Origin: an uncultured Bacteroidota bacterium
GTDB taxonomy: Bacteria; Bacteroidota; Bacteroidia; Bacteroidales; CG2-30-32-10
NCBI GenBank assembly: GCA_963831005.1
Contig: CAWHOW010000045.1
Coordinates: forward strand, 9,878 to 73,877
Reading direction: 5' to 3'
DNA: 64,000 nucleotides
The notes under the pieces are model-generated. The model was not told the DNA's origin, searched no databases, and saw only the letters and a list, made by a program, of their open reading frames with translations. Below, piece by piece: positions 26,714-51,008 of the stretch. A program made the position numbers and the translations under genes. Each line of letters opens with the position of its first letter. The stretch's first letter is position 1.

Positions 26714-26731
26714 TAAATAAAAAATGTAATT

Positions 26732-27811
26732 ATGAAAAAAATATTACATAAAAATTTCTTTTTCATTCAACTTGTATTATTAACCGGCATTTATTTGTTT
26801 TCGACTGAGGCAAAGTGCCAGGATGCACAATTTTCGCAGTTTTACAATTCTCCTCTTGCAATGAATCCATCGCTTACCGGTGCTTTTAACGGCAATGACC
26901 GCTTGTTATTAAATTACAGAAACCAATGGAGTAGTATATCAACACCATATAAGACATTCGCATTTTCTTGTGATATGGGATTAAACAAGAAAATTGGAAA
27001 TACAGGTTTTCTGGCTGCAGGGATTTCCTTTTTAAGCGACAGGGCAGGAACATCTCAGTTAGGACTGAACCAGGTCAATCTATCATTAGCTTATCATGCA
27101 CAAATATCGGATTACAATACTGTTTCAGCAGGAATTATGGGCGGATTTGCTCAACGCAGCATAGATTTTAATAAATTGTCATGGAATAGCCAGTATAATG
27201 GCAACAATTACGATCCAAATCTGCCCACTGATGAAACTGGGTATTCACAAAACAAGCCGTATGGAGATTTTGGCGCAGGATTAGAATGGACATATTCAAA
27301 AGGGGAAATGTATGCAACAGCAAATAATCAATTAAACATAAATGCGGGCTTTGCAGTTTTTCATATTAATCAACCAAATATTGCATTTTTTTCAACTGAA
27401 AAAGATCCATTGCCGATCAAACTTGTATTTCATGGAAATTCTCAAATAGGCTTTAGTAATTCGAAATGTTCTATAGTACCTTCTTTCCTGTATGTTCAAC
27501 AGGGCGCTTCGAAAGACATTATTGCCGGAGGTATGTTCCGAATCAAATTACAGGAAGAATCAAAATATACAGGTTTTATTAAAGGCGCAGCACTTTCTAT
27601 CGGAAGTCTATATCGGGTAGGCGATGCTTTTATTCCAAACATGGAACTGGAATTTTCTGGTTATGCAATGGGAATAAGCTATGATGTAAATACGACAGGA
27701 TTAACATATGCTACTTCAGGTAAAGGAGGTTTAGAAATCTCCCTACGCTGGATTAATCCCAATCCGTTTACTAACAAACCAGCAATAAAAACACCAAGGT
27801 TTTTTAATTAA
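26732..27811 (+). CDS. PorP/SprF-family T9SS membrane protein
   Basis: Canonical start of the mature protein, QDAQFSQFYNSPLAMNPSLTG. Its size, beta-barrel-like pattern and position directly after a type-B CTD gene also fit. Confidence 0.9.
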   Translation: MKKILHKNFFFIQLVLLTGIYLFSTEAKCQDAQFSQFYNSPLAMNPSLTGAFNGNDRLLLNYRNQWSSISTPYKTFAFSCDMGLNKKIGNTGFLAAGISFLSDRAGTSQLGLNQVNLSLAYHAQISDYNTVSAGIMGGFAQRSIDFNKLSWNSQYNGNNYDPNLPTDETGYSQNKPYGDFGAGLEWTYSKGEMYATANNQLNINAGFAVFHINQPNIAFFSTEKDPLPIKLVFHGNSQIGFSNSKCSIVPSFLYVQQGASKDIIAGGMFRIKLQEESKYTGFIKGAALSIGSLYRVGDAFIPNMELEFSGYAMGISYDVNTTGLTYATSGKGGLEISLRWINPNPFTNKPAIKTPRFFN

Positions 27812-27838
27812 ATTATGAAAAATATAACGAACAAATAA

Positions 27839-28762
<924 letters not shown>

Positions 28763-28800
28763 GTTCATTAAGTTATAATAACAATTTAACAATTAAAGAT

Positions 28801-30564: not shown

Positions 30565-30634
30565 TAAAAATGGGAGGAAAGCTGTGCCTACCGGCAAGGC
30601 AGGCTTGTTCGATATTCGATATTAAACAGAGATG

Positions 30635-30661
30635 GCTTCGCAAAATGCGAAGCTTTTTTTT
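30635..30661 (+). terminator. rho-independent terminator between convergent genes
   Basis: gcttcgc aaaat gcgaagc followed by T8. Confidence 0.75.
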
Positions 30662-30998
30662 ACGATAGTTCTTCTTTTATCTCCAGCAGGAAATCTTTTA
30701 TTTCTTTAAGGCTTTTTACTATTTCAATATTCTGGATAAGTTCTTCTTTGTTATCCTTAAGTTTGTTCTTAGCACCCTGTAGAGTAAAACCACGTTCTTT
30801 CACCAGGTGATAAATGATATGGAAATTATCCACATCTTCCTGTGTAAAAAGACGGTTGCCTTTTTTATTCTTTTGCGGTTTAATAATTTCAAATTCCTTT
30901 TCCCAAAAGCGAATCAGCGAAGTGTTCACCTGGAACATTTTAGCCACTTCGCCAATGGTGTAATAAATCCGTCCTATTTCTTTTTCCTTTAAAGGCAT
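30660..30998 (-). CDS. MerR-family transcriptional regulator
   Basis: YYTIGEVAKMFQVNTSLIRFWEKEF is a MerR-type HTH; the remainder looks like a coiled coil. Confidence 0.85.
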   Translation of the reverse strand: MPLKEKEIGRIYYTIGEVAKMFQVNTSLIRFWEKEFEIIKPQKNKKGNRLFTQEDVDNFHIIYHLVKERGFTLQGAKNKLKDNKEELIQNIEIVKSLKEIKDFLLEIKEELS

Positions 30999-31011
30999 CT
31001 TTTTTAAAATA

Positions 31012-31130
31012 CTAAACTCGAAACTCTAAACAATTTCAAATGTCAAAATTATCAATGTTCAAAACGGTTTGATTCATTTGAATTTTTGTCATTGTAAATT
31101 ATTTAGGATTTAGAAATTAGATATTAGAAT
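31012..31130. repeat. long AT-rich imperfect palindromic element, copy 2
   Basis: ctaaactcgaaactctaaacaatttcaaatgtcaaaatt ... aatttttgtcattgtaaattatttaggatttagaaattagatattag. Related to 19912..20056. Confidence 0.7.
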
Positions 31131-31140
31131 TTTCTTTGCA

Positions 31141-32316
31141 TTATAATATTTTCTTTGCCAATAACACATTCCTCCCATAGCCATAACCATACTTAAAATC
31201 AAAAGGCTTGGAACCGTTTGAGAGAAAAGCGTTATTCAAATCACTTTGGAAACAATATTTAAAAACAGGAATGGGTCTGTCATATGTACCATAATACTGG
31301 AACTTCCATTTCTTCTGATCGAAGAAGCGATAAGCAACCCCTGAATCGTCCTGCAACAGAAATTTACTTTTACTCAGCACTGTACTTCTCATAAATGTAA
31401 AGTCAGAACCGTGAAGAAGATAAGAAGCGGATTTTATAAAAGTGGTAACATTGGAATCAATATTCTGTATATAGGTTTTGCAACCTGCATTCTTTGCCAG
31501 GCCTGCGTCGGAAATATCGGCTGAGAAATAATATAGCTTTTTGATAATGCTATCAGCTCCTGCCGGACTGAATGTTATTTCAACGCCTTTGTTAATACGG
31601 ATCTGACCTCTTGTGGATATGAAAGTATCAGCAACTGTTACTTTTCCATCATCTCCAATATTGGCGTTTTTAATGTTCTTTACCGTATTACCTGTCCGAG
31701 CCATAAATATCATTAATACCGGAAGAACACCATCAACATCCTGATTATTCAATTGCGACGACATATATGAAGTAATGAAAAAGCTTCTTTTAAGAATATC
31801 TTCAAGGGCTTTATTTATGGATACAAAAAGACTATTGATATTCCTGTCATTGATGCTTTTTACATCGGTAATAGAACCGGTTTTCTCCAAACCGAATAAA
31901 ATATATTTCTCAGCATTTGGGAAAAAAGTATTTGCATAAAGAAAATCAGGTCCGCTGAAAGGGTAAAAAAGTGTTTTTGTAACTTTATTAATATCCTTCA
32001 ACTCTGAATCTGACCATTTTTTCACCCTTACCAAACTACTGTCTCTAACTTTATTCCATGTAGTATCAAAGCTTCCTGAATATTTTATCCATTGTTGTTT
32101 TTTAACCAATGCATTAAATGGTGCAACAGTATCAGGTTTAATTCCGGCAAGGAATTTTGCCACTTCGTTGTAATAATATTTCTTAACCGGAAGTATCTTC
32201 TTAACAGTGGTGTCTTTTGTTGTGTCTGTTTTCGAAGGACCCTGCGAACAGGCAACAAAATGACAACATATTATAAGTGCCACTACAGGCTGGAATATCC
32301 ATTTGTGTTTTTGCAT
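31141..32316 (-). CDS. hypothetical lipoprotein (tandem paralog A)
   Basis: Lipobox (VACSQG). Collinear with 32398..33567, with shared blocks LFYPFSGPDFLY..TFFPNA.KYI.FGLE, YYFSAD.SD.GL, KSASYL.H, LLQDDSG and F.YGYG. Confidence 0.65.
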   Translation of the reverse strand: MQKHKWIFQPVVALIICCHFVACSQGPSKTDTTKDTTVKKILPVKKYYYNEVAKFLAGIKPDTVAPFNALVKKQQWIKYSGSFDTTWNKVRDSSLVRVKKWSDSELKDINKVTKTLFYPFSGPDFLYANTFFPNAEKYILFGLEKTGSITDVKSINDRNINSLFVSINKALEDILKRSFFITSYMSSQLNNQDVDGVLPVLMIFMARTGNTVKNIKNANIGDDGKVTVADTFISTRGQIRINKGVEITFSPAGADSIIKKLYYFSADISDAGLAKNAGCKTYIQNIDSNVTTFIKSASYLLHGSDFTFMRSTVLSKSKFLLQDDSGVAYRFFDQKKWKFQYYGTYDRPIPVFKYCFQSDLNNAFLSNGSKPFDFKYGYGYGRNVLLAKKIL

Positions 32317-32397
32317 AAGTTATTTTTTTACTAAAATATTTCGCCGGATAAGTTTACAATTTTCATCTTATCCGGCGATTTATGTTTTGAATTAATA

Positions 32398-33567
32398 TTA
32401 TTTCTTTTTAGCTAAAAGTAGTCCGCAATGAGCACCGTAACCATACTGGAAATTCAGAGGTTTTGGTTTAGCTTTTGCGTAGGCATCTTTAAGGTCTTTC
32501 TCAAATTTCTTAGCAAACAGTGGAATAGGGCCGGTGTACATGCCAAATAACTGAACATCCCATTTGGTCTCATCAATAAATTTAAATGAAATTCCTGAAT
32601 CATCCTGAAGAAGTGCTTTGCTCTTAGTAAGTACGGTATTTCTTACCGAAGAGAAATAATCATTGTGCATCAGGTATGAAGCCGATTTCACCATAGTGAC
32701 CACATTGTTTTCCAATGTTTCGAAGTATTTCGCACAATTCAGATTTTTCTTTAAACCGTCATCGGAAACATCTGCGGAGAAATAATATATCTTGCGGACA
32801 ACTGTATCACCTTTATTAACATAAGTGATCTCCGCTCCTTTATTATAACTGGCGTCAGCTCTTAGGTTTTTAAATGAATCGATATGAACGATCTTGCCAT
32901 CTTTATCTATTTCGGTAGGTTTAATGTCAACAATTTCATGGTTTGTTCTGGCAACAAAAAGAAGAATGATAGGCAATGCTCCGCTTACGAGTTCAGTGTT
33001 TAGTTCTTTCGACATTTCCTTAGTCTGGAAGAAAGTAAGGTTGAGTACATCGCCAATGGATTTATTGATAGCATTGAAGAACAATGGAAGTTTCTCTTTC
33101 GATAATTTCTTTACATCAGGAATGTTACCAACAGGCTCCAGTCCGAACATGATATATTTTTTTGCATTAGGGAAGAATGTGCAGGCATGCAAATAGTCAG
33201 GTCCGCTGAAAGGATAGAACAAGGTTTTTAAATCTTTATTCAGATCTGTCAACACTGTATCCGACCATTTTCTCATTTTAGAAAGGCGTCTTCTGTCTAG
33301 TTTGGCCCATGTAGAATCATTTGCTGAGGAAAAGTTTTTGAAATTAGCATCTTTTGTAAGTTCGAACAAGTCGCTCTTGCTGTCCACTGCCATACCTGAA
33401 ATAAATTTGGCGAGGTCGGTGTATGCTTTATTTATTTTAACAGTATCTTTCTTTACTGTTTTTACACTATCTTTTTTATCCTTGTTTTTGTTGCCACTGC
33501 CTCCGCATGATGCGACTATAAAAGCAACAGAAAGAATTGCTATTCCGAAAAATGATTTTTTAAGCAT
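32398..33567 (-). CDS. hypothetical lipoprotein (tandem paralog B)
   Basis: Lipobox (VASCGG). Same conserved blocks as 31141..32316. Confidence 0.65.
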   Translation of the reverse strand: MLKKSFFGIAILSVAFIVASCGGSGNKNKDKKDSVKTVKKDTVKINKAYTDLAKFISGMAVDSKSDLFELTKDANFKNFSSANDSTWAKLDRRRLSKMRKWSDTVLTDLNKDLKTLFYPFSGPDYLHACTFFPNAKKYIMFGLEPVGNIPDVKKLSKEKLPLFFNAINKSIGDVLNLTFFQTKEMSKELNTELVSGALPIILLFVARTNHEIVDIKPTEIDKDGKIVHIDSFKNLRADASYNKGAEITYVNKGDTVVRKIYYFSADVSDDGLKKNLNCAKYFETLENNVVTMVKSASYLMHNDYFSSVRNTVLTKSKALLQDDSGISFKFIDETKWDVQLFGMYTGPIPLFAKKFEKDLKDAYAKAKPKPLNFQYGYGAHCGLLLAKKK

Positions 33568-33579
33568 ATTGTATTTGAT

Positions 33580-34905
33580 TTAGTTATTTATTATCTCTGT
33601 TTTTGAATAATATTTACATATAAAGTATACTAATAACCCCAGCAAAACAGTGGCAAGGCCAGTTAAGGATTCATAAGGTCTAACAATCATTAATCCAATA
33701 AAAATCCAAAGCATTAAAATAAGAAAAATTATTGGAACTACCGGATAGCCCCAGGTTTTATATGGTCTTATTGTATCTTTAAATTTATGTCTATGTATGA
33801 AAACTCCAAGAACTGTCAAAAACGTAAATATATTCAATGTGAATCCAACATAAACAATAATAGCATCAAAAGATGCAGTTATAATTAAAATAAAGCTAAT
33901 TAAAGATTGGAAAAGAACTGCAACTAACGGAACTCCTTTTAAATTCTTTTTTGAGAGGAACTTTAATAAACTATAATCTTCTCCCATTACCTGGTTTACT
34001 CTGGGTCCAACAAATACCATAGAACTTATTGAAGATATTAATAGAATTGAAATTAGCAGTCCCATAATTTTGCCACCTGTTAATCCAAAAATATGATTGG
34101 CAGAAATAAATCCGATTTCTTTGTGTCCAATTAATTCAGAAACGGGTGTTGTATAAAGAAAAATATAGTTTAATAAAAAATAAAGTGCAGTGACAATTAA
34201 TGTGCCTCTTAATAAAGATTGTGGTAGTTTCTTTTGCGGATTATCCATTTCACCAGCAATATATGCTGATGCATTCCAACCCGAATACGCATAAGAAACA
34301 AACACTAATGATACGGCAAAAACAGGATTAATAATATCTTTCCATGAATCAGCTGATGGAAAAATGTTTATTTTCTGATGAACATCAATTAATGCAAAAC
34401 CACAAATAACAAAAATGATTATTAATAAAATCTTAAACAGTGTGAAAACATTTTGAAACCCGCTTCCAATGCGAACATCATAACTATGAATTCCAGTGAT
34501 AATTATTAAAACTGTCAATGCAATGTATAAAGAAGATAATCCGGGAAATACGCTAGATGTGTAACTTCCTAAAGCTATACATGCTGCTGCCACTGGTGCT
34601 GCAAATCCAATTGTAATTGAAATGAAGCCGGAAATAAAACCAATTGCAGGATGATAAATTTTTGACAAATAATGATATTCGCCACCAGATCTTGGCATTG
34701 CGGCACCTAATTCACCATAAACTAAACTACCACAAAATGCAAATATCCCTCCAATGACCCAAAGAAGCAATACGGCAAATATTGTCTTTGTACCAGCTAA
34801 CTGATATCCTATTGAAGTGAAAACGCCTGATCCCACCATGTTTGCAATAACAAACGAAGTGGCGGTAAGAACACCAATTTTAACAAGTTTATCTTTCGAA
34901 GCCAC
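33580..34905 (-). CDS. APC-family amino acid permease
   Basis: 441 aa with about 12 TM segments. The N-terminal VIANMVGSGVFTS and GELGAAMPRSGGEYHY motifs are typical of APC transporters. Confidence 0.85.
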   Translation of the reverse strand: MASKDKLVKIGVLTATSFVIANMVGSGVFTSIGYQLAGTKTIFAVLLLWVIGGIFAFCGSLVYGELGAAMPRSGGEYHYLSKIYHPAIGFISGFISITIGFAAPVAAACIALGSYTSSVFPGLSSLYIALTVLIIITGIHSYDVRIGSGFQNVFTLFKILLIIIFVICGFALIDVHQKINIFPSADSWKDIINPVFAVSLVFVSYAYSGWNASAYIAGEMDNPQKKLPQSLLRGTLIVTALYFLLNYIFLYTTPVSELIGHKEIGFISANHIFGLTGGKIMGLLISILLISSISSMVFVGPRVNQVMGEDYSLLKFLSKKNLKGVPLVAVLFQSLISFILIITASFDAIIVYVGFTLNIFTFLTVLGVFIHRHKFKDTIRPYKTWGYPVVPIIFLILMLWIFIGLMIVRPYESLTGLATVLLGLLVYFICKYYSKTEIINN

Positions 34906-35023
34906 GTATTCGGTATGAGTATAATGAATTTAGAGGGTGCAAAGTAACAAAAATTTACTACTCCGTTTTAATTCAGCTAATTTTTTTTTCAAGACTTAAT
35001 AAACAGTTGTAAATTGCTGATTA

Positions 35024-36004
35024 CTACATGGATTGTGTAATCTTCGAAGCTGATTCAATAACCTTTTGCCATTCATCAGGGCTAAGGTCATTGTAAAAAT
35101 AATTGATAGGGTTTACTTTAGTTCCATTCTTCCACACCTCATAATGAAGATGCGGGCCGGTTGCCATACCCGTGCTGCCAACATATCCAATTAGTTCACC
35201 CCGCTTTACTTTTTGTCCTTCGTTAACAACCTTACGGCTCATGTGACCATAAAGGGATTCATAGCCATAACCATGATTAATTACAACGACAATACCATAG
35301 CCTGAAAGTGCATTACCACCGGGTGTCTGCACCAGTCCATCTCCTGATGCATAAATTGGTGTGCCTCGGGGAGAAGTAATATCAACACCGGGATGCATTT
35401 GTAAAGTTTTATATATCGGATGTATTTCGTAACCAAATCCACAGATTATTTTATTTGCACCACCTTTAATAGGAATTATAGCCGGAATACTTGCCATCAT
35501 TTGCGACTTATTCTTCGCCATATCCAGCACCTCGTCGTACGACTTGGACTGCACATAAAGCCGGCGCGATAAAACATCCAGCTTTTTAGTGATCTCAATC
35601 AACAGTTGGGAGTTGTCGTAACCTTCTAGTTTTGCATATCTGTCGGCACCACCAAATGCGGCATTTCTTACTGTGCTGGGAATAGGTTCTGCTTCAAAAA
35701 TGGTGCGGTAGATATTATCATCACGATTCTCCATATCTTTCAGAACAAGGTTCACCCTGTCCATACGTTCATTTAAGATGTCATATTGCAACTTGTACTG
35801 ATCTATCTCCCGCTGCAGCATTTTTTCCTTAGGAGAACTGAAAAAGTTATATGCAAAAACCAACACCACTGATGCAAAAACAAAACCAGCCACCACAACA
35901 TAAAGAACCCGTTTAAACTTGTCCTTTATAGAAACACGGACCTTTTCGAAAGCCAGCGACTTTACGTTAAAATGATACTGATGTTTTTTCTTTTTCTTAA
36001 ACAT
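35024..36004 (-). CDS. M23-family metallopeptidase
   Basis: N-terminal TM and coiled coil. C-terminal HPGVDI, YGHMS and GSTGMATGPHLHYEV motifs. Confidence 0.9.
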   Translation of the reverse strand: MFKKKKKHQYHFNVKSLAFEKVRVSIKDKFKRVLYVVVAGFVFASVVLVFAYNFFSSPKEKMLQREIDQYKLQYDILNERMDRVNLVLKDMENRDDNIYRTIFEAEPIPSTVRNAAFGGADRYAKLEGYDNSQLLIEITKKLDVLSRRLYVQSKSYDEVLDMAKNKSQMMASIPAIIPIKGGANKIICGFGYEIHPIYKTLQMHPGVDITSPRGTPIYASGDGLVQTPGGNALSGYGIVVVINHGYGYESLYGHMSRKVVNEGQKVKRGELIGYVGSTGMATGPHLHYEVWKNGTKVNPINYFYNDLSPDEWQKVIESASKITQSM

Positions 36005-40822: not shown

Positions 40823-40852
40823 TAATTATAAGCACTAATAAATTCATTGATC

Positions 40853-43102
40853 ATGACCAAATCAGCAAATATCATAGATAGGGTAAGCAATTTAAAAAGT
40901 CTTATTAAGCCCGAAGATAACAGACACATATGGCAATTTTCGCGTGTAGGTGGAGTTAACAGGGTGAACCTTGAAACAGGTATGGACCTTGTTTCGCTTG
41001 AACACCTTGACCAAAAACTATGGACTGCATTAAGCTGCCCTGTTCACGGAATGGAGATTGATTCAAAGACTCTTGAGTTAATTGATAAGGATAAGGACGA
41101 CAGAATAAGGGTACCCGATATACTTGAAGCAGTAAAATGGCTTACTTCGCTTGTTAAAAACCCTGACGATTTGGTTAAGGAAAACCAAAGCCTACCTCTT
41201 TCTGCCATTAACGACAGCGGTGAAGAAGGGAAGAAATTACTTACTTCTGCCCATCAGATATTGACAAATTTGGGAAGACCTGATGATGAAGAAATATCTG
41301 TGGAAGAAACTTCCGACAGGGATAAAATCTTTGCCAATACTAAATTAAACGGAGATGGCATTATAACAGAAGATTCGTCAGATGATGAAAATATAAAGAA
41401 ACTCATCAATGAAATTATTTCCTGCATGGGCTCGGCAACAGATCTCAATGGCAAACAGGGTATTTCAATTGACCATATCACTGACTTTTATCAGAACTGT
41501 GTAGATTATTCTAACTGGTATACAAAAGCAGAAGCCGATCTGAAAAAGATTTTGCCCTATGGCGATTCTACGGATGCTGCATATGCATCGTTCACTGCTG
41601 TTAAGTCTAAAATTGAAGATTATTTCCTGAGATGCCGTTTAGCTGATTTTGATGCGGATTCCGCAGGAATCTTAAATTCTCTCAATTCAAGATATGAAGG
41701 AATAATAGTTAAGGATCTAACTTCATGCATTGATGAAATTGCTGCTTTTCCGCTTACTAAGATCGAAGCCCAAAAGCCACTATCTCTTACCAAAGCCATT
41801 AATCCGGCATGGGAAAAAGCAATTGATGACTTCAAGGAATTAGTTGTTAAACCCGAATTTTTAGATAAGGCAAACCTTACAGAAGCTGATTTAAGTATTA
41901 TTATTGGCAGGTTTGTTGATTACTGCAAATGGCAAACTGAGAAGAGTGGTGTTGCTGTTGAAAAATTGGGATTGATGCGCATACGTGAATTATTGGCAGG
42001 CAATTCGAAAGAGATGCTTTGCTCATTGATAGAGCAGGACAAAGCGCTGGAGGATAACACAAATAATATTTTCCTGGTTGATAAATTAGTAAGGTATTAC
42101 CGCGACCTATATACTTTGCTAAAAAACTATGTTACATTCTATGATTTTTATAAGCCGGAATCAAAAGCGATATTTCAGGTAGGCAGCTTGTATATTGATC
42201 AGCGTTCCTGCGACCTTTGCATAAAAGTGAGTGATATGAGCAAACATAACTCACTTGCTGGTTCAAGTGGAATCTGCCTTATTTATTGCAACTGTTTTTC
42301 GAAGTTAAAGAATGAGAAAATGACCATTGTGGCTGCTCTGACCGATGGTAATATTGATAACCTTTCAGTGGGAAGAAATGCAATATTTTACGACAGGAAA
42401 GGCGACGACTGGGATGCTACTATTGTTAAAATTGTTGACAATCCGATAAGCATCAGGCAGGCATTCTGGTCGCCATACAGGAAGGTTTCCAAATTCATTT
42501 CTACGCAGATTGAAAAAGTTGCTTCGGCTAAAGAGAAGGAAGTGCATGCAACAACTACATCCCATATTGAAAAGACAAGCGATAAGGTAGATACCGGAAT
42601 AAAAGAATCTATGAAAGCAACTCCTGTGGAGGCAGCTCCAGCGCCACAGCAACCATTTGATATTGGAAAGTTTGTAGGGATATTTGCAGCTATCAGTCTT
42701 GCTCTTGGAGCTATTGGCTCCGTTGTAGCATCAATATTAACAGGCTTTTTCGGACTGGCATGGTGGAAAATGCCGCTTGCAGTGGTTGGCATTATCATTT
42801 GTATTTCAGGTCCGTCAATGATACTGGCATGGCTTAAATTGAGAAAAAGAAACCTTGCACCTTTATTAGATGCAAATGGATGGGCAATTAATGCACGTGC
42901 CACCATCAACATACCTTTTGGAAATACCTTGACTCATATTGCAGCCTTACCTGTTAATTCAAAACTAAACCTTGTTGATCCTTTTTCAAAAAAGAAAAGA
43001 CCGCTTTTCCCAATTTTAATAATTCTGATTATTGCACTGAGCATTGCCACATATCTGCTATGGCATTTCGGAATTTTAGATAAATGGGGGATTTTACGTT
43101 AA
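40853..43102 (+). CDS. hypothetical large protein with C-terminal transmembrane region
   Basis: About 750 aa. The soluble N-terminal part has an EF-hand-like DKDKDDRIRVPD, and 3-4 hydrophobic helices sit near the C-terminus. No family recognised. Confidence 0.6.
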   Translation: MTKSANIIDRVSNLKSLIKPEDNRHIWQFSRVGGVNRVNLETGMDLVSLEHLDQKLWTALSCPVHGMEIDSKTLELIDKDKDDRIRVPDILEAVKWLTSLVKNPDDLVKENQSLPLSAINDSGEEGKKLLTSAHQILTNLGRPDDEEISVEETSDRDKIFANTKLNGDGIITEDSSDDENIKKLINEIISCMGSATDLNGKQGISIDHITDFYQNCVDYSNWYTKAEADLKKILPYGDSTDAAYASFTAVKSKIEDYFLRCRLADFDADSAGILNSLNSRYEGIIVKDLTSCIDEIAAFPLTKIEAQKPLSLTKAINPAWEKAIDDFKELVVKPEFLDKANLTEADLSIIIGRFVDYCKWQTEKSGVAVEKLGLMRIRELLAGNSKEMLCSLIEQDKALEDNTNNIFLVDKLVRYYRDLYTLLKNYVTFYDFYKPESKAIFQVGSLYIDQRSCDLCIKVSDMSKHNSLAGSSGICLIYCNCFSKLKNEKMTIVAALTDGNIDNLSVGRNAIFYDRKGDDWDATIVKIVDNPISIRQAFWSPYRKVSKFISTQIEKVASAKEKEVHATTTSHIEKTSDKVDTGIKESMKATPVEAAPAPQQPFDIGKFVGIFAAISLALGAIGSVVASILTGFFGLAWWKMPLAVVGIIICISGPSMILAWLKLRKRNLAPLLDANGWAINARATINIPFGNTLTHIAALPVNSKLNLVDPFSKKKRPLFPILIILIIALSIATYLLWHFGILDKWGILR

Positions 43103-43411
43103 CTTTTATTTCAAGTGAATTTAGGTTATATTACAACAGCTGTTTCTTGGATGTTAGCTTTGTAAAATGAATTTGATTCAGATTTATTTAAAAAGCTAAA
43201 AGGGAAACATCTTTTTTCTTTGCAAGACATTTTAAAAAGAAAAAAGATTGGGTATAAGACATTCAAAAATGTATATCTGTCACTAAAGCCTAAGTGCTTC
43301 ATCCCTGATTTCAAGAGAAAGTATGAAAAAGAGAACTGATATTTTATAATGCATCCGTTGAAAACCCTTATTTTGAAATCTACAACAAGTTTCTGATGCG
43401 GTGGATGCAGC

Positions 43412-43456
43412 ATAAAGAAAAATCACACATTATGTGTGACACATTTTGTGTGATAT
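43412..43456 (-). terminator. probable rho-independent terminator of the xanthine-dehydrogenase operon
   Basis: Palindromes tcacacattatgtgtga and cacattttgtg. On the minus strand the hairpin is followed by tttttcttt, about 70 nt downstream of the stop at 43525. Confidence 0.5.
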
Positions 43457-43524
43457 TGTTTTGCTAAGTAAACTATGGGAAAGAACATTCTGAAAATTTA
43501 CTAGTGTAGTACACTGAAACTTAC

Positions 43525-43980
43525 TTATTCAACAACTGCTTTCACCGCATTCATTATAGGAATATACCCTGTGCAGCGGCAAAGATTTCCTTCAAGGGCT
43601 TCTTTAATTTCAGCTTCAGTTGGGTTGGGTCTCGCATCGAGCAAAGCTTTAGCACTCATCAGCATACCGGGTGTACAGAATCCACATTGTACAGCGCCAA
43701 ACTTCAAGAACGATTCCTGCAGTTTGGAAAGGACATCATTCTTTTCAATATTTTCAATGGTTTCAATAACGGCATCCTGTAACTGTCCTGCAAGCACCAG
43801 GCAGGAGCATATTGCTTCGCCATTCATAATTACTGTACATGCGCCGCATTCGCCAACACCACAGCCTTCCTTGGTTCCTGTTAATCCTAGTGTATCTCTT
43901 AAAACATCAAGCAGGCGGAGGGAATCATCAACATCAAGCTGGTGGATCTTATTATTTACAGTAATTTTTATTTTTGACAT
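43525..43980 (-). CDS. (2Fe-2S)-binding small subunit of a xanthine dehydrogenase-family enzyme
   Basis: GCGVGECGACTV (plant-type cluster) and CGFCTPG...CRCTGY (second cluster) motifs. Confidence 0.92.
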   Translation of the reverse strand: MSKIKITVNNKIHQLDVDDSLRLLDVLRDTLGLTGTKEGCGVGECGACTVIMNGEAICSCLVLAGQLQDAVIETIENIEKNDVLSKLQESFLKFGAVQCGFCTPGMLMSAKALLDARPNPTEAEIKEALEGNLCRCTGYIPIMNAVKAVVE

Positions 43981-43997
43981 AATGTTTTTCTTATTTC

Positions 43998-44179
43998 GTT
44001 CCTGACGGAACTTTTAATTAATAGGTTTATGTTTTCTACCGATGTTATGTTCCTAACGGAACAGCTTATAATTGACTTTATTAATTTTGAATCTTCAAAC
44101 TTTTATTCTTTTTGTCCCGTTAGGGACAAGATATTGGTAAAAAAGCAACAAATAAAAAATATTAAGTGCCGTTAGGCAC
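43998..44179. repeat. cluster of four REP-like 14-nt hairpins (GTnCC-NNNN-GGnAC)
   Basis: gttcctgacggaac (43998), gttcctaacggaac (44049), gtcccgttagggac (44114) and gtgccgttaggcac (44166). The first two and the last two are in opposite orientation. All lie immediately 3' of the Y1-transposase-like gene. Confidence 0.8.
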
Positions 44180-44186
44180 GAAATAA

Positions 44187-44652
44187 TTAATCCAAAACTG
44201 ATTTGAAAATAAAACGTTCATCATAATTTATTTCAAAACTTTCAAGCAGCTCTTTATATTCATCAATAAACTTTTTCTTTTTATGATGCTCTTTCTGATT
44301 CATGATGTAATTAACAACAGTTGGTAATTGTGATTTGCTATACGAAAATGCACCATAGCCTTCTTGCCATGAAAAATGTCCCCTGAAAACTTTCTTTTCA
44401 TTAATCCATTTTGAAGAGCTGCCCTTAATGTCTTGCAGCAGATCAGATAAAGATTGTACGGGTCGCATTCCAAATAATACATGAATATGATCGGTACGCC
44501 CTGTTTATTGCTAATGGTTTATGGTTATTTGTTTTAATTATACCCATGATATATTTGAATAACTCTTCTTCCAGACTTTGTGAAATAAGGCATTCTCTGT
44601 TCTGAACAGCAAAAACAGCATGTATATGAATTTGAGTGAAAGTGTTGGCCAT
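44187..44652 (-). pseudogene. IS200/IS605-type Y1 transposase (RAYT-like), disrupted by a 1-nt frameshift
   Basis: ORF 44443..44652 (MANTFTQIHIHAVFAVQNRE...AIN) and ORF 44187..44468 read as one protein. Shifting frame near 44499..44505 (aacaggg) restores ..DHIHVLFGMRPVQSLSDLLQDIKGSSSKWINE. Confidence 0.8.
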
Positions 44653-44661
44653 AAACCTTTC

Positions 44662-47600
44662 TTACCTTTTAATTTTTACTAAGATCTCTTTTAAGATATC
44701 CTTACAGATGTTAATGAAAACCGGTGTTTTATATTCCGACGACCAGCGAGTTCCAATAGCAGAATCAATAATGTTTTGCAGAGATGTTTCAATTTCATCT
44801 ATCAGTGATTCGGTAAGTTTTTTACCGATAAATAATTGTTCAATTTCATCAATGCGTTTTGGTTTGTCAAACAAGGAACCTGCTGCGATCCTGCATTCTT
44901 CGATATTATTTTCTTTATCGAATGCGATCATTGCACCCACGCTCATACGTGTAATATTTACGGCATTTCTTCTTCCCAATTGATAATAACTATGGTGAAA
45001 TTTCTTTTGAGGAAGAGGAATAACTATAGCAGTAAGTATCTCGCTTGGTTTTATCTGTGTCTGGTAATTTTTTACAATAAAATCTTTAATCGGAATTTCT
45101 CTTAGTCCATCTATAGATTGTAAAATAACTTTGGCATCATATATTACAAGAGGGGGTACGGAGTCGGCGCAGGGAGCGGCATTAACAATATTACCGCCTA
45201 AAGTCGCCCTGTTCCTGATCTGCTTGGAACCTATCAGAGAACAAGCTTCCACAAGTATAGGATAATTCTTTATTATTGCTTTATTCGATATAATTGAATT
45301 TACCGATGCTGCACTTCCAATTACGATAGATTCTTTTGTTTTCTTGATTTTTTTCAGCTCCTGCAATTGAGAAATGTCGAGTAATTTTTCAGCATCATTT
45401 CTTTTTCTTAATTCCACAATTATATCTGTCCCGCCCGAAATTAATTTATATTCTTCTGAAACCAGAGTAAGTGCTTTCTTTAATGTTTTCGGACTTAGCA
45501 TTGAAATGTTTGAAACGCGTGGTGCATTTTTCCTTTTACCTATACAAAGTCCGGCTTCGCTCTGCCTGCTTGGTTTTGACAGATGTTTCCCAAGGAACAC
45601 CCTTTCAAGTGTAAGAGGTATTTGATAAAAGTTTTTTCCGGTCGCAAATTTCACAGCATTGTTAATTGCTGCTGAGGCAAGTTCCAGTGTGGGTTCGCCT
45701 ATGCTCTTTGCGCCGAAAGGACCGTATTTATCCTCGTTTTCAACAAGTATTGCTTCTATAACAGGAATGTCTTTAATTGTTGGAAGCAGGTATTCATCAA
45801 GGTTAGGCGATTTTACAATTCCCTTTTGAATATTAAAATCCTCCAGTATTGCATAGCCGATTCCCTGTGCAATGCCGCCATAAACCTGTCCTTCAATGCC
45901 AAGTTTGTTGATCACCTTACCAACATCATGAGCAGCCGTAACCTTTAATACTTCCAGTTTTCCTGTTGAAGTATCAACTTTTATTTCAGCTACCTGGCAG
46001 GCATACACATAAGTGAAATAAGCATTTCCTTGTCCGGTTTCTTCGTGCCAGCTCACATCAGGAGCTTTGAACCAGCCATAAGCAGAAAGATTGACTCCCG
46101 CCCTGAATGATCTCTCAACAGCTTTCTCAAAGGATATCGGATATATTCCCGGTAGAGGTTCTTTAAGTGAAATCATTCCATTGCTCCATTCTGTTTCACT
46201 GGTTTCGGAAGCTTTCAGATCATCTTTTATAACTTTGAAAATGGCATTCTTAATTTTTTGTGCTGCATCAATCACTGCATTACCGCCAGTTAGGGTTCCT
46301 CTGGAAGCAACTGTCGGCCCACCATCTGGAACAGATGCTGTTTGAGGTTCCAGGAAAAGCACATTCTCAAATTTTACTCCCAATATTTCAGCTGCGATCT
46401 GACAAAAAGTTGTTCGCAGACCCTGTCCATTTTCGTTTAGTCCTGCTAATACATAAATACTGCCATCAGCCTGAACGGAAACAATGGCAGAAGTGGCATC
46501 TGTGCCTTCGGCGCCTAATGAGCATCCTCTGTAGCTGCAGGCAAAACCTATTCCGTATTTATATCTTTCACTTGTACTATTTAATTTCTTGAAATCTTCA
46601 AGTTTTTTTGCGTAAGCGGATCTTTCAATGGCAATATCTATCACTTCATCAAGAGCAACCTTATGTTCTGAAAGTACCTGTCCGCTTGCAGTAACACTGC
46701 CTTGCTTAAAACCATTGAGCTTGCGAATTTCAAGCGGAGATAAATTGCAAATAGCTGCAATCTCATCCATCAGCGATTCCTGTGCAAAAATGATCTGTGG
46801 AGAACCGAAACCCCTGAATGCTGCGGTATAAGTGTTGTTCGTATAAACGCTGCGAATATCTGTCTGAACGTTTTCTATTTCATAGGGGCCGGTAGCCTGG
46901 ACAACAGAGCGCCAGGTAACAAAAAAACTTTGAGATGAATATGCACCACTATCAGCAATGATATCAATCTTCATTGCTTTTAGCTTACCATTATTATTAA
47001 ATCCAACTTTATAATTTAAAATGTACGGATGGCGTTTATAGCTTTCCTTTATTGATTCCTCTCTTGTGTAGGTTAATTTTACAGGCTTCCCCGTGATCTT
47101 TGAAAGTAAGGCGCAACGACAGGCCATACAATTGATGATGTCATCTTTACCGCCAAAAGAACCACCAAGTGTAGAGCCAAATACATTCACCTGGTTTAAA
47201 TTCAAACCCATAAATGCAGCAACCATTTTTCTTGTGGTAAAAGGATTTTGTATAGAACCATACACTTTACATCCCTTTGATGCCGGGTCAGGCACAACTG
47301 TTATAGTTTCGGGTTCAATGTAAGCATGTTCGTGAAAACCTGTTCTGTATTCTTTTTCAATGATCTGATCTGATTCAGCAAAACCTTTTTCAACATCTCC
47401 TTTTACCAGAGGGTAATGATTTACAACATTGCTTTTAAAATCAGGATGTATCGGGCGCGCTGTTGGTTTGATAGCTTCTGCGGGATCGAATATTCCCTCA
47501 ATAGGGTCATAAGTAATGTCAATAGCATCAGCAGCTGCACAAGCCTGTTCCCTTGTTTTGGCGGCAACGATAGCAATGACATCTCCAATATAAAAAACCT

Positions 47601-47871
47601 CATCATCCACTAATACGTAATGATCCTGGCGGATTGGACCTATGCGTTTCTTCCCCGTAATATCCTTAAAAAGAGCAATGGCTTCAACCCCTTCCATTTT
47701 CTCTGCCTTGGATACATCTATGTTCTTGATCTTACCGGCAGGTATATCAGTATAGCGATTTGCAACATGCAATAATCCATGCAACTTGATATCGTCACCA
47801 TACAATGTTTTCCCAGTCACTTTTTCGTAACCATCAACGCGGGTTACTTCTTTCCCAATTATATTATGCAT
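44662..47871 (-). CDS. xanthine dehydrogenase-family protein, molybdopterin-binding subunit fused to FAD-binding subunit
   Basis: The N-terminal about 760 aa hold the a/b-hammerhead and MoCo domains (VDGYEKVTGK, GGSFGGK, GEPT). The C-terminal about 290 aa hold the FAD-binding PCMH domain (LISGGTDIIVELR, ATLGGNIVNAAPCADS) plus the CO-dehydrogenase flavoprotein C-terminal domain. Confidence 0.9.
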   Translation of the reverse strand: MHNIIGKEVTRVDGYEKVTGKTLYGDDIKLHGLLHVANRYTDIPAGKIKNIDVSKAEKMEGVEAIALFKDITGKKRIGPIRQDHYVLVDDEVFYIGDVIAIVAAKTREQACAAADAIDITYDPIEGIFDPAEAIKPTARPIHPDFKSNVVNHYPLVKGDVEKGFAESDQIIEKEYRTGFHEHAYIEPETITVVPDPASKGCKVYGSIQNPFTTRKMVAAFMGLNLNQVNVFGSTLGGSFGGKDDIINCMACRCALLSKITGKPVKLTYTREESIKESYKRHPYILNYKVGFNNNGKLKAMKIDIIADSGAYSSQSFFVTWRSVVQATGPYEIENVQTDIRSVYTNNTYTAAFRGFGSPQIIFAQESLMDEIAAICNLSPLEIRKLNGFKQGSVTASGQVLSEHKVALDEVIDIAIERSAYAKKLEDFKKLNSTSERYKYGIGFACSYRGCSLGAEGTDATSAIVSVQADGSIYVLAGLNENGQGLRTTFCQIAAEILGVKFENVLFLEPQTASVPDGGPTVASRGTLTGGNAVIDAAQKIKNAIFKVIKDDLKASETSETEWSNGMISLKEPLPGIYPISFEKAVERSFRAGVNLSAYGWFKAPDVSWHEETGQGNAYFTYVYACQVAEIKVDTSTGKLEVLKVTAAHDVGKVINKLGIEGQVYGGIAQGIGYAILEDFNIQKGIVKSPNLDEYLLPTIKDIPVIEAILVENEDKYGPFGAKSIGEPTLELASAAINNAVKFATGKNFYQIPLTLERVFLGKHLSKPSRQSEAGLCIGKRKNAPRVSNISMLSPKTLKKALTLVSEEYKLISGGTDIIVELRKRNDAEKLLDISQLQELKKIKKTKESIVIGSAASVNSIISNKAIIKNYPILVEACSLIGSKQIRNRATLGGNIVNAAPCADSVPPLVIYDAKVILQSIDGLREIPIKDFIVKNYQTQIKPSEILTAIVIPLPQKKFHHSYYQLGRRNAVNITRMSVGAMIAFDKENNIEECRIAAGSLFDKPKRIDEIEQLFIGKKLTESLIDEIETSLQNIIDSAIGTRWSSEYKTPVFINICKDILKEILVKIKR

Positions 47872-47886
47872 GTTTGCTTATTTTCT

Positions 47887-49128
47887 CTATGCTAAAAATT
47901 TATCAACGGAATCGATATCCGGTTTTACAGGAGCTGGTATATCAATGATCTTCTGTACTGCATTCAGGTCTTTTAAACCACTACCTGTAAGAAGAACAAC
48001 ATTTCTACTTCCTTTTTCAAATCGTCCGTCCCAGTAATAGCTGAGGAATCCAGCAAAAGCAGCACTAGCAGCAGGCTCTGCAAATATTCCTGTTCTGCTG
48101 CTTAGAACTTTTGATGCGGCAATTATTTCTTCATCACTAACCAAAATTGTTTCTCCATTGAAATCTTTAATATACTTTTTTGCCATCCAATAATTTCTTG
48201 GTATATCAACAGATATAGAATCTGCCAGCGTTTTGCTTGGCGTGGAAACGAAATTATTCTTGTGTATATTGTTAATGATATTACTGCTGCCAATTGCCTG
48301 AACGGCAACGATAGTTGGGAGCTTGTTAATTATTCCAAGGTTTAACAGATCTTCAAATCCTTTATAAACACCTGAAATGATCACACCATCACCAACAGGA
48401 ACAAAAATTCTATCTGGAATAGATTGCCCTAGTTGAGAATACAGTTCGTATGAAACAGTCTTCTTTCCTTCAATAGTTAACGGATTAAATGCTGTATTGC
48501 GATTATACCAGCCATATTTTTTTGTTGCTTCTATGCTTAAATCAAAAGCAGCATCATAGGTTCCGTCAATAGGAACTATTTGCGCCCCATACATCATTAT
48601 CTGTGTAAGCTTAGCTTTAGGAGCAGCAGCAGGAACAAAAATAATGGCTTTCTGTTTTTGGGCAGCACATATTCCGGCAAGTGATGAACCTGCATTACCT
48701 GTGGAAGCAGCAACAATCGTATCTATATTATGTTCTTTTGCATAAGCAGATACTATGGCTGAAGCTCTGTCTTTAAAGGAAAATGTAGGATTCCGAGAAT
48801 CATCTTTAAGAAAGAGATAAAATTCAAACGGATCTTCATCTAAGGATAAAACATGATAAAGCGGAGTATTTCCAACCTTTAAATAAGGTAAACTATTTAT
48901 AGTATTTAAGGGAAGAAGATCAAGAAACTTTGTTTTCTCAAGTTGAGAAAACAAATCACCGGATAAATGACTACTTATTCCTTTATAGTTGTATATAGTT
49001 TTTAGTACACCTTTTGGTGGAGTAGTAGGGTTATTGTGTATTGAACATTCTTTGCAGAGGTAAATAATATCCGAAGAGTCATAAGTCCTGCCACAATCAA
49101 TGCACTCATAAAAGAATTTATCCTTCAT
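47887..49128 (-). CDS. threonine synthase-like PLP-dependent enzyme
   Basis: N-terminal Cys4 zinc ribbon (CIDCG...CKEC), the PLP lysine motif PTFSFKDRAS and ASTGNAGSS. Confidence 0.75.
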   Translation of the reverse strand: MKDKFFYECIDCGRTYDSSDIIYLCKECSIHNNPTTPPKGVLKTIYNYKGISSHLSGDLFSQLEKTKFLDLLPLNTINSLPYLKVGNTPLYHVLSLDEDPFEFYLFLKDDSRNPTFSFKDRASAIVSAYAKEHNIDTIVAASTGNAGSSLAGICAAQKQKAIIFVPAAAPKAKLTQIMMYGAQIVPIDGTYDAAFDLSIEATKKYGWYNRNTAFNPLTIEGKKTVSYELYSQLGQSIPDRIFVPVGDGVIISGVYKGFEDLLNLGIINKLPTIVAVQAIGSSNIINNIHKNNFVSTPSKTLADSISVDIPRNYWMAKKYIKDFNGETILVSDEEIIAASKVLSSRTGIFAEPAASAAFAGFLSYYWDGRFEKGSRNVVLLTGSGLKDLNAVQKIIDIPAPVKPDIDSVDKFLA

Positions 49129-49175
49129 AAGAAATGAATAAAAAAGAAATCAAAGGTACTAATTTCTGTGGAATA

Positions 49176-49313
49176 CTCAATGAGCAAGACCCCTGCTAAC
49201 GTCGCTGTTATGAAATCTCATTCCCCTGCATGACTTATGACTTCTGCAGGAAATACCGGCGACAAGGAAAGACAGGAGTAAAATAAACATTGTTGCTTTA
49301 ACTAACTTTTTCA
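49176..49313 (-). CDS. possible 45-aa small lipoprotein/peptide
   Basis: ATG ORF MKKLVKATMFILLLSFLVAGISCRSHKSCRG... with a signal-peptide-like start and a lipobox-like Cys. Below the ORF-track cutoff, with no further support. Confidence 0.25.
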
Positions 49314-49529
49314 TGCAGTTCTTTTTAAAAGATTCTTGATTTACTTATTATAAAACGACACAAATATATTTCTTTTTTATTTTTTACCAAATTCATTTAT
49401 GCTCTCTTTTCTATAACATTTCACCTACATTTATTGTGCCATATTAAATTGTCTTAACATCTTCAATGCTTATATTAAATAATTGAATATTTACAGAACC
49501 TGAGACGCCCATTATTATTATAAAAAGAT

Positions 49530-51008
49530 TTACAAATTTTTCAACACCGCAGTTTCATCATTGAATTCGCTTATCATCTCATCCAGTTTTTCATTCTGGT
49601 TGAATATCTGTGGCCATAAATCTCTGTCAGACCACAATTGGTTCAGATCTTCTATTTCCTTGCCCTGTTGCTCAACCCATGTAAAATATTTAAGGTTATG
49701 GATGACTTTTCGGTCTGTGTAAGTTAGTTCTTTTATGTAATCAACTTTTGTACCGAACAAGCATTTCTCATGATCTTTTATCGCCTGTGTTGTGGTATAG
49801 CTTCCTCTTTCATGAGTGAGTTCTTCAAGTCGCGACTGGTACATTACAGCCGAATCAGTAGCAATAGTCATCAAAATATCATCTGATGTCATTTCAAAAA
49901 GTTTAGCTGTTTTGATTGCAGATAACATATTTGATATTCCTGAAATTCCAAGCAGTTCAAGAGAATCAATCATTGTTGCACTTAAACCTAAGGATTTTAA
50001 ATATGCTTTTCCCTCTTTTTCATTAAATAATCTAAAAACCCTCATGCAATCCTCATCATCAATAGCTGCAACAGCATCAGTATTCTTAATGTTATGAACC
50101 CATGGAACATGCTTATCGCCTATACCTTCGATACGATGACCGCCAAATCCATTCATTAAAAGAGTTGGGCATTGAAGTGCTTCGGATGCAACAACTTTAA
50201 TTTCCGGGTGAACCGTACGTAAATAATCGCCCCCTGCAATAGTGCCTGCAGAACCTGTTGCTGAAATATACCCGGCGAATTTTGATTTCGGACCTTTTAT
50301 TTTATTATATACTTCATTCAGCGCATAACCGGTTACATTATAATGCCAGCAGGGATTTCCGAATTCATCAAACTGGTTGAAAATGATACAGTCTTTCCTG
50401 TTACGGCGAATATCCCAACAAGCATCATATATCTCTTTCACATTCGATTCACAACCGGGTGTGGCAATAACTTCAGCGCCTATTTCTTTAAGCCATTCAA
50501 AACGTTCTTTGCTCATCTCTTCAGGAAGAATGGCAACAGCAGTGCAACCCATCAGGTAAGAATCGAAAGCGCCGCCACGGCAATAATTTCCTGTTGACGG
50601 CCATACCGCTTTATGATAAGTGGGATCGAATTCGCCTGAAATAATTCTTGGAGCAAGGCAACCATAAGCTGCACCCACTTTATGTGCTCCCGTGGGGAAC
50701 CATTTGCCGACAATCAGAACGATACGAGCATCAACACCACTTATTTCTTTTGGTATTTCAATATAATTCACTCCACCATACAAACCGCCTTTTTCCTTCG
50801 GCTCGTTATGCCAGTTGATACGGAAGAGATTAAGTGGATTGAGTTCCCACAGTCCTATAGTTTTTAATTTATTCTTTATCTTATCAGGAATAAGATCAGG
50901 ATTTCTCATCTGAGCAAATGTAGGTAACACTATTCCTTTTTCGCGAAAACGGTTGATGGCTTTCTTCCTTACATCAGGATTTACAACTTTGTTAACGATT
51001 TGTATCAT
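49530..51008 (-). CDS. PLP-dependent enzyme of the cysteine synthase/tryptophan synthase beta family (long form)
   Basis: 492 aa, with the PTGAHKVG lysine motif, SATGSAGTIAGG and IEGIGDKHVP. Function not assignable. Confidence 0.65.
   Translation of the reverse strand: MIQIVNKVVNPDVRKKAINRFREKGIVLPTFAQMRNPDLIPDKIKNKLKTIGLWELNPLNLFRINWHNEPKEKGGLYGGVNYIEIPKEISGVDARIVLIVGKWFPTGAHKVGAAYGCLAPRIISGEFDPTYHKAVWPSTGNYCRGGAFDSYLMGCTAVAILPEEMSKERFEWLKEIGAEVIATPGCESNVKEIYDACWDIRRNRKDCIIFNQFDEFGNPCWHYNVTGYALNEVYNKIKGPKSKFAGYISATGSAGTIAGGDYLRTVHPEIKVVASEALQCPTLLMNGFGGHRIEGIGDKHVPWVHNIKNTDAVAAIDDEDCMRVFRLFNEKEGKAYLKSLGLSATMIDSLELLGISGISNMLSAIKTAKLFEMTSDDILMTIATDSAVMYQSRLEELTHERGSYTTTQAIKDHEKCLFGTKVDYIKELTYTDRKVIHNLKYFTWVEQQGKEIEDLNQLWSDRDLWPQIFNQNEKLDEMISEFNDETAVLKNL

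Follow-up and report, generated by a model that had tools for sequence, protein, structure and literature searches.

An IS200-like Y1 gene with REP-like hairpin arms, a putative long-term resident of a xanthine-dehydrogenase-family operon in Bacteroidales

How does a gene of transposase type come to stand between two subunit genes of a metabolic operon, and is it there as a wreck in decay or as a resident? The question is raised by a 64-kb stretch of DNA from an uncultured Bacteroidota bacterium (contig CAWHOW010000045.1), which was analysed as a whole and is called the window here. On its minus strand, an IS200-like Y1/HUH gene (44187-44652, 154 codons, match to PF01797) and a spacer with four short hairpins separate two operon genes. 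Upstream lies the gene for a fused molybdopterin-binding and FAD-binding (Mo/FAD) subunit of a xanthine-dehydrogenase-family enzyme (44662-47871, 1069 aa), and downstream the gene for the 2Fe-2S subunit (43525-43980, 151 aa, Pfam Fer2_2 and Fer2). The first-pass annotation, made from the letters of the window, described a frameshifted and inactivated REP-associated tyrosine transposase (RAYT; REP, repetitive extragenic palindrome) lodged in the operon together with its REP hairpins. The comparisons reported here point to a different history. The Y1 gene and its hairpins are probably an old, vertically inherited and domesticated IS200-like system that became fixed in the operon and works like a RAYT with its REPIN, a doublet of inverted REP units. 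What is new is that a known protein subclass, TnpA-Y1 subclass 1.2, is accompanied by stereotyped REP-like arms and is fixed inside an operon across a clade.

The Y1 gene and its reading frame

The placement of the gene in the first-pass annotation was correct. The Mo/FAD gene stops with TAA at 44662-44664, nine nucleotides follow (gaaaggttt), and the Y1 gene begins with ATG at 44652; its stop codon lies at 44187-44189, leaving a spacer of 206 nt before the 2Fe-2S gene. The assignment to the IS200-type Y1 genes was also borne out. With its frame repaired, the 154-aa protein scores 90.7 bits against Pfam Y1_Tnp PF01797 (cut-off 23; profile positions 2-121 of 121), and its best NCBIfam match is the IS200/IS605 transposase model NF033573 (66.9 bits, cut-off 55). 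The nearest solved structures are ISDra2 TnpA (2XM3) and IS608 TnpA (2A6M/2VJV), with which the HUH motif and the catalytic tyrosine align. In the repaired frame and in an intact allele described below, DHIHV and YIMNQ align with PDHVHL and YIESQ of ISDra2 TnpA. The E. coli RAYT structure was absent from the PDB sequence matches at E<=1.

The signature of TnpA-Y1 subclass 1.2 consists of DH[IV]H, WQ and Y...Q..HH in proteins of about 148 aa (Quentin et al., 2018, BMC Genomics 19:475; PMC6006769). The subclass was described as close to IS200 but as one that 'does not share IS properties', with low copy number, occurrence in Bacteroidetes and the entry 'REP: no' (PMC6006769), and it was left out by Bertels et al. 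(2017; PMC5581495). The window protein carries DHIH, WQ and YIMNQKEHH. Among 120 close relatives, DH.H is present in 116, WQ in 119 and Y...Q..HH in 117; the glycine of NG..DH is kept in 116, and the modal length is 154 aa. By motifs, length and taxonomy the predicted protein matches subclass 1.2, with which it also shares a conserved C-terminal tail, a length of about 150 aa, low copy number and occurrence in the Bacteroidetes. By these marks it is classed as class 1 (IS200-like), not class 2, and is not a RAYT in the strict sense. The name RAYT-like in the first-pass annotation was therefore only partly apt: the analogy to RAYT and REP is largely right, in view of the cognate REP-like arms described below, but the protein scores 24.5 bits against the NCBIfam RAYT model NF047646, whose cut-off is 80.

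In the window the Y1 gene is read as two open reading frames (ORFs; 44443-44652 and 44187-44468), the first of which stops after 69 codons. Deletion of any one base between about 44478 and 44507 yields an open frame of 154 codons. An intact allele of 154 aa was found on a Logan contig from sequencing run ERR11630400 (L103). Comparison with this allele places the lesion at 44495-44502 on the minus strand and resolves it into G>A at 44502, C>T at 44496 and an extra A at 44495, the window reading AACAGGGCGTACCGAT where the intact allele reads AACGGGGCGCCCGAT (NGAPDH). The frame is thus broken near the place given in the first-pass annotation, but two substitutions accompany the single extra nucleotide that was described there. 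All three changes fall inside 8 nt just before the HUH motif, within the GC-rich palindrome GGGCGCCC, and they replace the near-invariant glycine of NG..DH.

The contig with the intact allele encodes the exact 2Fe-2S protein of the window and differs from the window at three positions in 5457 nt (41025-46481; 99.945% identity), all of them at the lesion. A second contig of the same run (L104) is 100.000% identical to window positions 23490-35362 over 11873 nt, so that the combined comparison of 17.3 kb holds no differences outside the lesion. Judged by this identity, the organism of the window is present in run ERR11630400. An intact Y1 gene exists in the same strain, whether the lesion is an artefact or a private allele. 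The window frameshift is probably an assembly or basecalling artefact, or else a private or minor allele, and not decay at the level of the lineage. When G>A and C>T errors cluster at specific motifs, basecalling or the consensus is typically at fault. Generally poor assembly was dropped as an explanation in view of the 100% identity to the second contig over 11.9 kb. Programmed +1 frameshifting was likewise dropped, since AAC-AGG-G offers no slippery context, the orthologues are unshifted and an intact allele exists. A Pfam search of suspicious ORF pairs, seeking other frameshifted genes in the window, returned nothing usable.

The two-arm module and its link with the protein family

The four hairpins, two per orientation, were correctly recognized in the first-pass annotation. 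The pattern GTNCC-N4-GGNAC occurs at 43998, 44049, 44114 and 44166 and nowhere else in the window; 0.18 matches are expected in shuffled sequence, and none of 100 shuffles reached four. On the gene strand two of the loops are TAAC and two are GTTA or GTCA. The hairpins make up two inverted arms of about 78 nt, each with two hairpins and ATAT/CTACC motifs. Arm 1 (44108-44187, minus strand) scores 77.7 bits and arm 2, its inverted copy (43990-44068, plus strand), 68.3 bits with the arm covariance model R1; the next best score in the window is 10.5 bits. Arm 1 begins with hairpin A (44166-44179, GTGCC-TAAC-GGCAC), preceded by TTATTTC and followed by TT; beyond it come a spacer, the motif TTTTACCAATAT, CT and hairpin B (44112-44129, TTGTCCC-TAAC-GGGACAA). 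On the gene strand, arm 2 reads hairpin C (44048-44063), ATAACATCGGTAGAA, a spacer, hairpin D (43998-44011) and GAAATAA. The arm hairpins are short and perfect; their CC/GG apex is invariant and their loop is TA(A)C. An ATAT-type motif precedes each of them, and (T)CTACC also stands before the second.

Searches by tblastn, blastn, pattern and unfiltered covariance model found no other arm or Y1 gene copy in the window, and neither pattern nor covariance model detected an arm or hairpin upstream of its Y1 gene. Folded as RNA, the module forms one long hairpin in which arm 1 pairs with arm 2 (-51.3 kcal/mol, z = -6.9), and this consensus fold holds in six operon copies. Arms 1 and 2 are therefore two inverted units pairing into one long hairpin, as in a REPIN. 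Folded singly as DNA, the hairpins have stems of 5-7 bp and energies of -4.1 to -6.3 kcal/mol. Hairpin A was not adopted as an intrinsic terminator, its stem being 5 bp long with -4.7 kcal/mol as DNA. A scan of 43300-44900 against Rfam at E<=10 gave sub-threshold eukaryotic snoRNA and miRNA noise only.

In all other operons found with the insertion (L001, L004, L005, L095, L101 and L102), termed filled operons here, the hairpins and their flanking motifs are kept, and L004 carries a compensatory change from GTCCC/GGGAC to GCCCC/GGGGC. L001, L004 and L005 match the window at 97%, 86% and 90% of hairpin and motif columns respectively, and at 84%, 49% and 51% of the columns between these elements; fourfold-degenerate sites of the Mo/FAD gene are 59% identical in L001 and 40% in L004. 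This pattern of identity argues that purifying selection acts on the hairpins as well as on the gene. Two observations on related modules may be added. In L102 (1700-1756) a GC-rich palindrome (agttcctgacgcccgtccggtcaggcgggcgtcaggaac) is nested in the loop of hairpin D. L001 (5560-5740, also at the end of L003) has a second, gene-less four-hairpin module about 500 nt past the 2Fe-2S gene, beside a 105-aa gene; the synteny of L001 with the window stops immediately past the 2Fe-2S gene, and no copy of this gene-less module occurs in the window.

A scan of the sequence collection for relatives of the Y1 protein gave 303, of which 80 loci with 56-93% identity were kept, and up to 10 kb on either side of each gene was examined. 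The kept loci come from Bacteroidota, Ignavibacteria, Planctomycetes, KSB1, Calditrichaceae and Desulfuromonadales. Upstream, the flanks of the relatives hold two hairpins separated by ATATTGGTAGAAA and then GAATAT ahead of the ATG; downstream, two more hairpins are separated by TTTCTACCGATAT. Two or more perfect GC-rich hairpins lie within 140 nt downstream of 52 of 84 genes, compared with 1.8% of control windows. The model R1, built from 75 arms (alignment A3), found 304 arms in 1.29 Mb around 82 relatives, with at least one arm in 79 of the 82 loci. The claim that the hairpins are cognate, REP-like partners of the Y1 gene was thereby upheld, the same two-hairpin arms recurring at the relatives' loci.

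The layout and distance profile were taken from an nhmmer re-scan. The canonical layout, with a minus-strand arm at most 150 nt upstream and a plus-strand arm at most 150 nt downstream, was found at 42 of the 82 loci; 10 had the downstream arm only, 17 the upstream arm only and 13 neither of these two. Arm density falls from 67.6 per 10 kb within 150 nt of the gene to 13.3 at 150-500 nt, 3.2 at 0.5-1 kb, 1.2 at 1-2 kb and 0.10 beyond 2 kb. Alternating tandem arrays of arms stand beside the gene in L012, L039 and L044, and to judge from the sequences the arms are multiplied locally. The core pairs vary as GC 127 and AU 22; UA 135 and CG 14; and CG 108, UA 21 and GC 14. The apical CC/GG pairs are invariant, and hardly any one-sided change, G-U included, occurs. 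Covariation scores 0.366, compared with 0.146 for shuffles and at most 0.105 for slid registers, in a model-fitted alignment that leans towards structure. The scarcity of G-U suggests a constraint at the level of DNA. Their distribution over so many loci argues that the arms belong to the protein family and not to the operon.

Some loci of the family have further peculiarities. In the planctomycete Pirellulaceae SH449 (CP197409; L021:10490-10860), the Y1 gene is directly followed by a tandem run of six or more 56-nt copies of the second-hairpin half-arm (CTACCGACATTTTGCCCCTAACGGGGC...). L007 and L099 each carry another, divergent Y1 gene a few kb away from the first on the same contig: at 10685-11095 in L007 (36% identical to the query) and at 5747-6142 in L099 (42%), where it follows an MmeI-like restriction-modification gene.

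Residence in the operon and competing explanations

The layout of Mo/FAD gene, Y1 gene, hairpins A to D and 2Fe-2S gene, with an intact Y1 gene, is found in at least seven other lineages. Amino acid identity of the Y1 protein in the same slot to that of the window is 93% in L001-L003/L006, 84% in L004, 82% in L005, 81% in L095, 75% in L101 and 74% in L102, and these same-slot relatives are the closest among about 8000 scored proteins. L001-L003/L006 represent the metagenome-assembled genome Bacteroidales SPRUCE 208 (JBEKEO01), the nearest species representative, and L004 lies on an 874-kb contig; the operon-borne Y1 gene of L095 (position 186) starts with TTG, not ATG. In a neighbour-joining tree, the operon-borne proteins group into a single clade that excludes relatives from other contexts (P0010, P0012). 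The ratio of nonsynonymous to synonymous substitution rates (dN/dS) is 0.06-0.09 for the Y1 gene, 0.045-0.07 for the Mo/FAD gene and 0.03-0.08 for the 2Fe-2S gene, and dS between the lineages is near or beyond saturation. The Y1 gene and its hairpins thus appear as a conserved, vertically inherited resident of the operon under purifying selection. The picture of a recent lodger does not survive this comparison, as the same slot is filled in lineages whose dS is saturated.

The first-pass annotation also called for relatives without the insertion, and these were found. A metagenome scan with the Mo/FAD alignment gave at least nine loci with five informative empty sites. The five insert-free operons (L086-L090), whose Mo/FAD protein is 78-83% identical to that of the window, have neither Y1 gene nor arms, and the 2Fe-2S ATG follows the Mo/FAD stop after 2-6 nt. 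The Mo/FAD proteins of the filled L004 and the empty L086 are 94% identical, and both loci have the junction TAAtatcATG. The junction of L086 (TAAtatcATGGCAAAAATAAATTTC) equals the junction of L004 upstream of its Y1 gene (TAAtatcATGGCAAA...) joined to the 2Fe-2S start of L004 (ATGACAAA, then AATAAATTTC). From this match it follows that the unit would begin at the former start codon of the 2Fe-2S gene and that its loss or gain would be precise to the nucleotide, possibly through the microhomology ATGNCAAA. No tetranucleotide of the kind conserved at the boundaries of IS608 was consistent at the insertion boundaries across the filled operons. One gain followed by losses or allele replacement is favoured, because the Y1 proteins form a single clade and share an unusual layout.

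These results can be drawn together in the following scheme. The Y1 gene would encode a Y1/HUH single-strand DNA endonuclease of subclass 1.2, and the 206-nt spacer would be its cognate doublet of two inverted arms. In an ancestor of an uncultured Bacteroidales clade, the unit would have landed exactly at the 2Fe-2S start codon and taken over the tight junction with the Mo/FAD gene, to be co-inherited and co-transcribed with the operon ever since, while some lineages would have lost it or never had it. By analogy with the IS200/IS605 and TnpA-REP paradigm, a dimeric HUH-Y1 enzyme would recognise the hairpins on single-stranded DNA. Cleavage and rejoining would take place beside a short conserved motif, for which ATAT-N3 5' of each stem and CTACC 8 nt 5' of hairpin 2 are candidates. 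This cut-and-rejoin activity would maintain the arms and multiply them locally, and the operon would merely host the Y1-arm system. The Y1 gene is presumably expressed from the operon transcript, as suggested by its position 0-9 nt past the Mo/FAD stop, the lack of an upstream arm and the lack of an obvious promoter.

Several points tell against this scheme. Only 9 arms lie in 0.88 Mb beyond 2 kb from the genes, and none elsewhere in the window, so that no classical genome-wide dispersal of REPs is seen in the sequence covered, up to 10 kb on either side of each gene. Both arms of the window and of the operon-borne clade stand 3' of the gene and do not flank it. The link between protein and hairpins is statistical, drawn from their co-occurrence, and Quentin et al. 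(2018; PMC6006769) list the subclass without REP. The inner clade of five operon-borne Y1 proteins has a bootstrap value of 44%, and the patchy presence of the unit on the Mo/FAD tree needs three losses or three gains, which are equally parsimonious on this small tree.

Four other explanations were weighed against the domesticated, REPIN-like system. The extra base and the replaced glycine do stand in the window sequence, and the rest of the assembly looks accurate enough over 17.3 kb that random error is not the obvious default; both would be expected of a real pseudogene in this strain, its Y1 protein inactivated and its hairpins left as orphaned relics. We nevertheless regard such decay as unlikely. 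The second assembly of the same strain has the intact allele, the three differences crowd into 8 nt of a GC-rich palindrome, as one would typically see with a local miscall or one complex event, and the Y1 gene bears no further lesions (dN/dS against L001, 0.09). All eight other operon copies are intact. Since the frameshift is missing from the second assembly, the gene is better seen as a conserved passenger than as a decaying wreck, and the inactivated RAYT of the first-pass annotation was given up on the same grounds, together with the low dN/dS. For genome scans this is a caution that a frameshift in one assembly alone is not evidence of pseudogenization. Far less credible still is a conventional IS200/IS605 element with its own ends that transposed into the operon recently. 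The best NCBIfam match, above its cut-off, and the closest solved structures, ISDra2 and IS608 TnpA, would suit it, but the insertion is common to lineages with saturated operon dS, no hairpin or arm lies upstream of the gene, the arms are inverted and not direct, and the window holds no second copy of the gene. Moreover, the tyrosine motif and the low copy number fit subclass 1.2, which stands in the literature without IS properties. The possibility of an ordinary IS200 element, raised in the first-pass annotation as what would overturn it, was accordingly set aside in view of the missing upstream arm, the mutually inverted arms and the syntenic slot.

The hairpins might, on the other hand, be mainly RNA-level elements of the operon (an attenuator, an mRNA stabilizer or processing sites) that set the ratio of the subunits, with the Y1 gene incidental. 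Hairpin A, which a T-rich run follows, was flagged as terminator-like, the spacer RNA folds well (z = -6.9) and the hairpins are kept in all filled operons. This account is nonetheless most improbable: the same arms recur on the flanks of Y1 genes in many phyla and unrelated genomic settings, G-U is almost absent among the variant pairs, which points to a DNA-level constraint, the stems are of 5-7 bp with -4.1 to -6.3 kcal/mol as DNA, and insert-free operons work with a junction of 2-6 nt. Because the 2Fe-2S gene remains under strong selection, transcription would have to read through the hairpin module. We are equally sceptical that the Y1 gene was co-opted for a function of the operon, for example as a reversible excision switch or in regulation of the enzyme. 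Its strict conservation in the operon, the purifying selection on it and its translational juxtaposition to the Mo/FAD gene would accord with such a role, as would the difference between very close relatives, the filled L004 and the empty L086 with Mo/FAD proteins 94% identical. Most family members, however, live in unrelated contexts, the insert-free operons retain both subunit genes, and there is no left-end hairpin for canonical excision of gene and module. The domesticated system hosted by the operon may also be viewed more widely, although we advance this tentatively and as a lesser possibility. Subclass 1.2 could be a separate, widespread domestication of an IS200-type enzyme (Bacteroidota, Ignavibacteria, Planctomycetes, KSB1 and others) with stereotyped two-hairpin repeats mostly kept as gene-adjacent arrays. 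In one Bacteroidales clade it would have become a fixed and selected part of an operon, where the structured spacer would replace a coupled junction of 2-6 nt and influence expression of the 2Fe-2S subunit.

Known systems, significance and the surrounding operon

The RAYT/REP systems with their REPINs and bacterial interspersed mosaic elements (BIMEs), known from E. coli yafM and from Pseudomonas (Nunvar, 2010; Bertels and Rainey, 2011; PMC5581495), resemble the present one in several respects. Both have a single-copy, vertically inherited Y1 gene under purifying selection, inverted palindromic repeats able to form a long doublet hairpin, alternating clusters as in BIMEs and a short conserved motif beside the hairpin foot. 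In contrast to a REP, each arm here has two hairpins of 5-7 bp, not one longer palindrome; arm copies crowd beside the gene, with about 0.1 per 10 kb elsewhere, and both window arms lie on one side of it. With the IS200/IS605 TnpA proteins the window protein shares the HUH motif and the catalytic tyrosine, and they are its closest solved structures. Enzymes of the IS200/IS605 family act by recognizing short hairpins in single-stranded DNA. Unlike those elements, the present system lacks a mobile unit enclosed by left-end and right-end hairpins in direct orientation, and it has no multiple identical copies in the window; it keeps a syntenic position across species, and its hairpins are perfect, not imperfect. 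The arms also resemble the GTAG- and CGTC-tagged REPs described by Di Nocera et al. (2013; PMC3733652): the foot of hairpin 1 carries CGT(C/G/T), GGTAG stands close to hairpin 2 (as CTACC on the opposite strand), and the units form inverted dimers. CGTC REPs as published have stems of 8-9 bp and are said to lack a dedicated transposase (PMC3733652), and the resemblance of these motifs is taken as a lead only.

Subclass 1.2 itself was published without REPs or terminal secondary structures, whereas 79 of the 82 loci examined here have arms, a result at odds with a descriptive trait of the subclass and not with its sequence definition. The relatives found here also carry extra gene-less arm copies and arrays, and residence in an operon, as in the window, was not described in that paper. 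A limited literature search found no later paper on repeats for the subclass, and the association with arms seems not to have been reported previously. The arms are a candidate DNA partner for a large Y1/HUH group, to which no REPs were assigned in the one paper that describes the subclass; at 90% identity, at least 8000 clusters have words in common with the window Y1 protein. The function of subclass 1.2 becomes testable with defined oligonucleotides. The locus further indicates that a transposase-derived gene can remain fixed in a metabolic operon over long periods and leave the operon undestroyed, and the pair of filled L004 and empty L086 offers a natural experiment on subunit expression.

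The description of the operon as one for xanthine dehydrogenase held at the level of the family. The Mo/FAD protein has the corresponding domain architecture (Ald_Xan_dh_C, MoCoBD_1, MoCoBD_2, FAD_binding_5 and CO_deh_flav_C in Pfam) but stays below every NCBIfam equivalog cut-off, at best with 476.8 bits against 783.65 (XdhA/PucD and XdhC/PucE level tested), and the 2Fe-2S subunit reaches 177.1 bits against an equivalog cut-off of 217. On these scores the name is a family-level label. An internal promoter for the 2Fe-2S gene was considered and dropped: a scan for sigma-70 promoters gave 7 sites against 7.1 expected in shuffles, and the conserved Bacteroidetes box TAnnTTTG was not seen by eye in the alignment of the spacers.

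The 751-aa ORF convergent with the operon (40847-43102) and a block of four or five ORFs at 18900-21700 had no Pfam match at E<=0.01. About 85 nt past the 2Fe-2S stop, at 43422-43440, lies a palindrome (GTCACACATAATGTGTGAT) with an 8-bp stem and T-runs on both strands. It gives a terminator-like match on each strand and is a candidate operon terminator, and it may serve as a bidirectional terminator common to the operon and the convergent 751-aa gene. Upstream of the Mo/FAD gene and on the same strand, two genes for pyridoxal phosphate-dependent (PALP) enzymes occupy 47887-51008, and in L005 an amidohydrolase gene lies near the operon.

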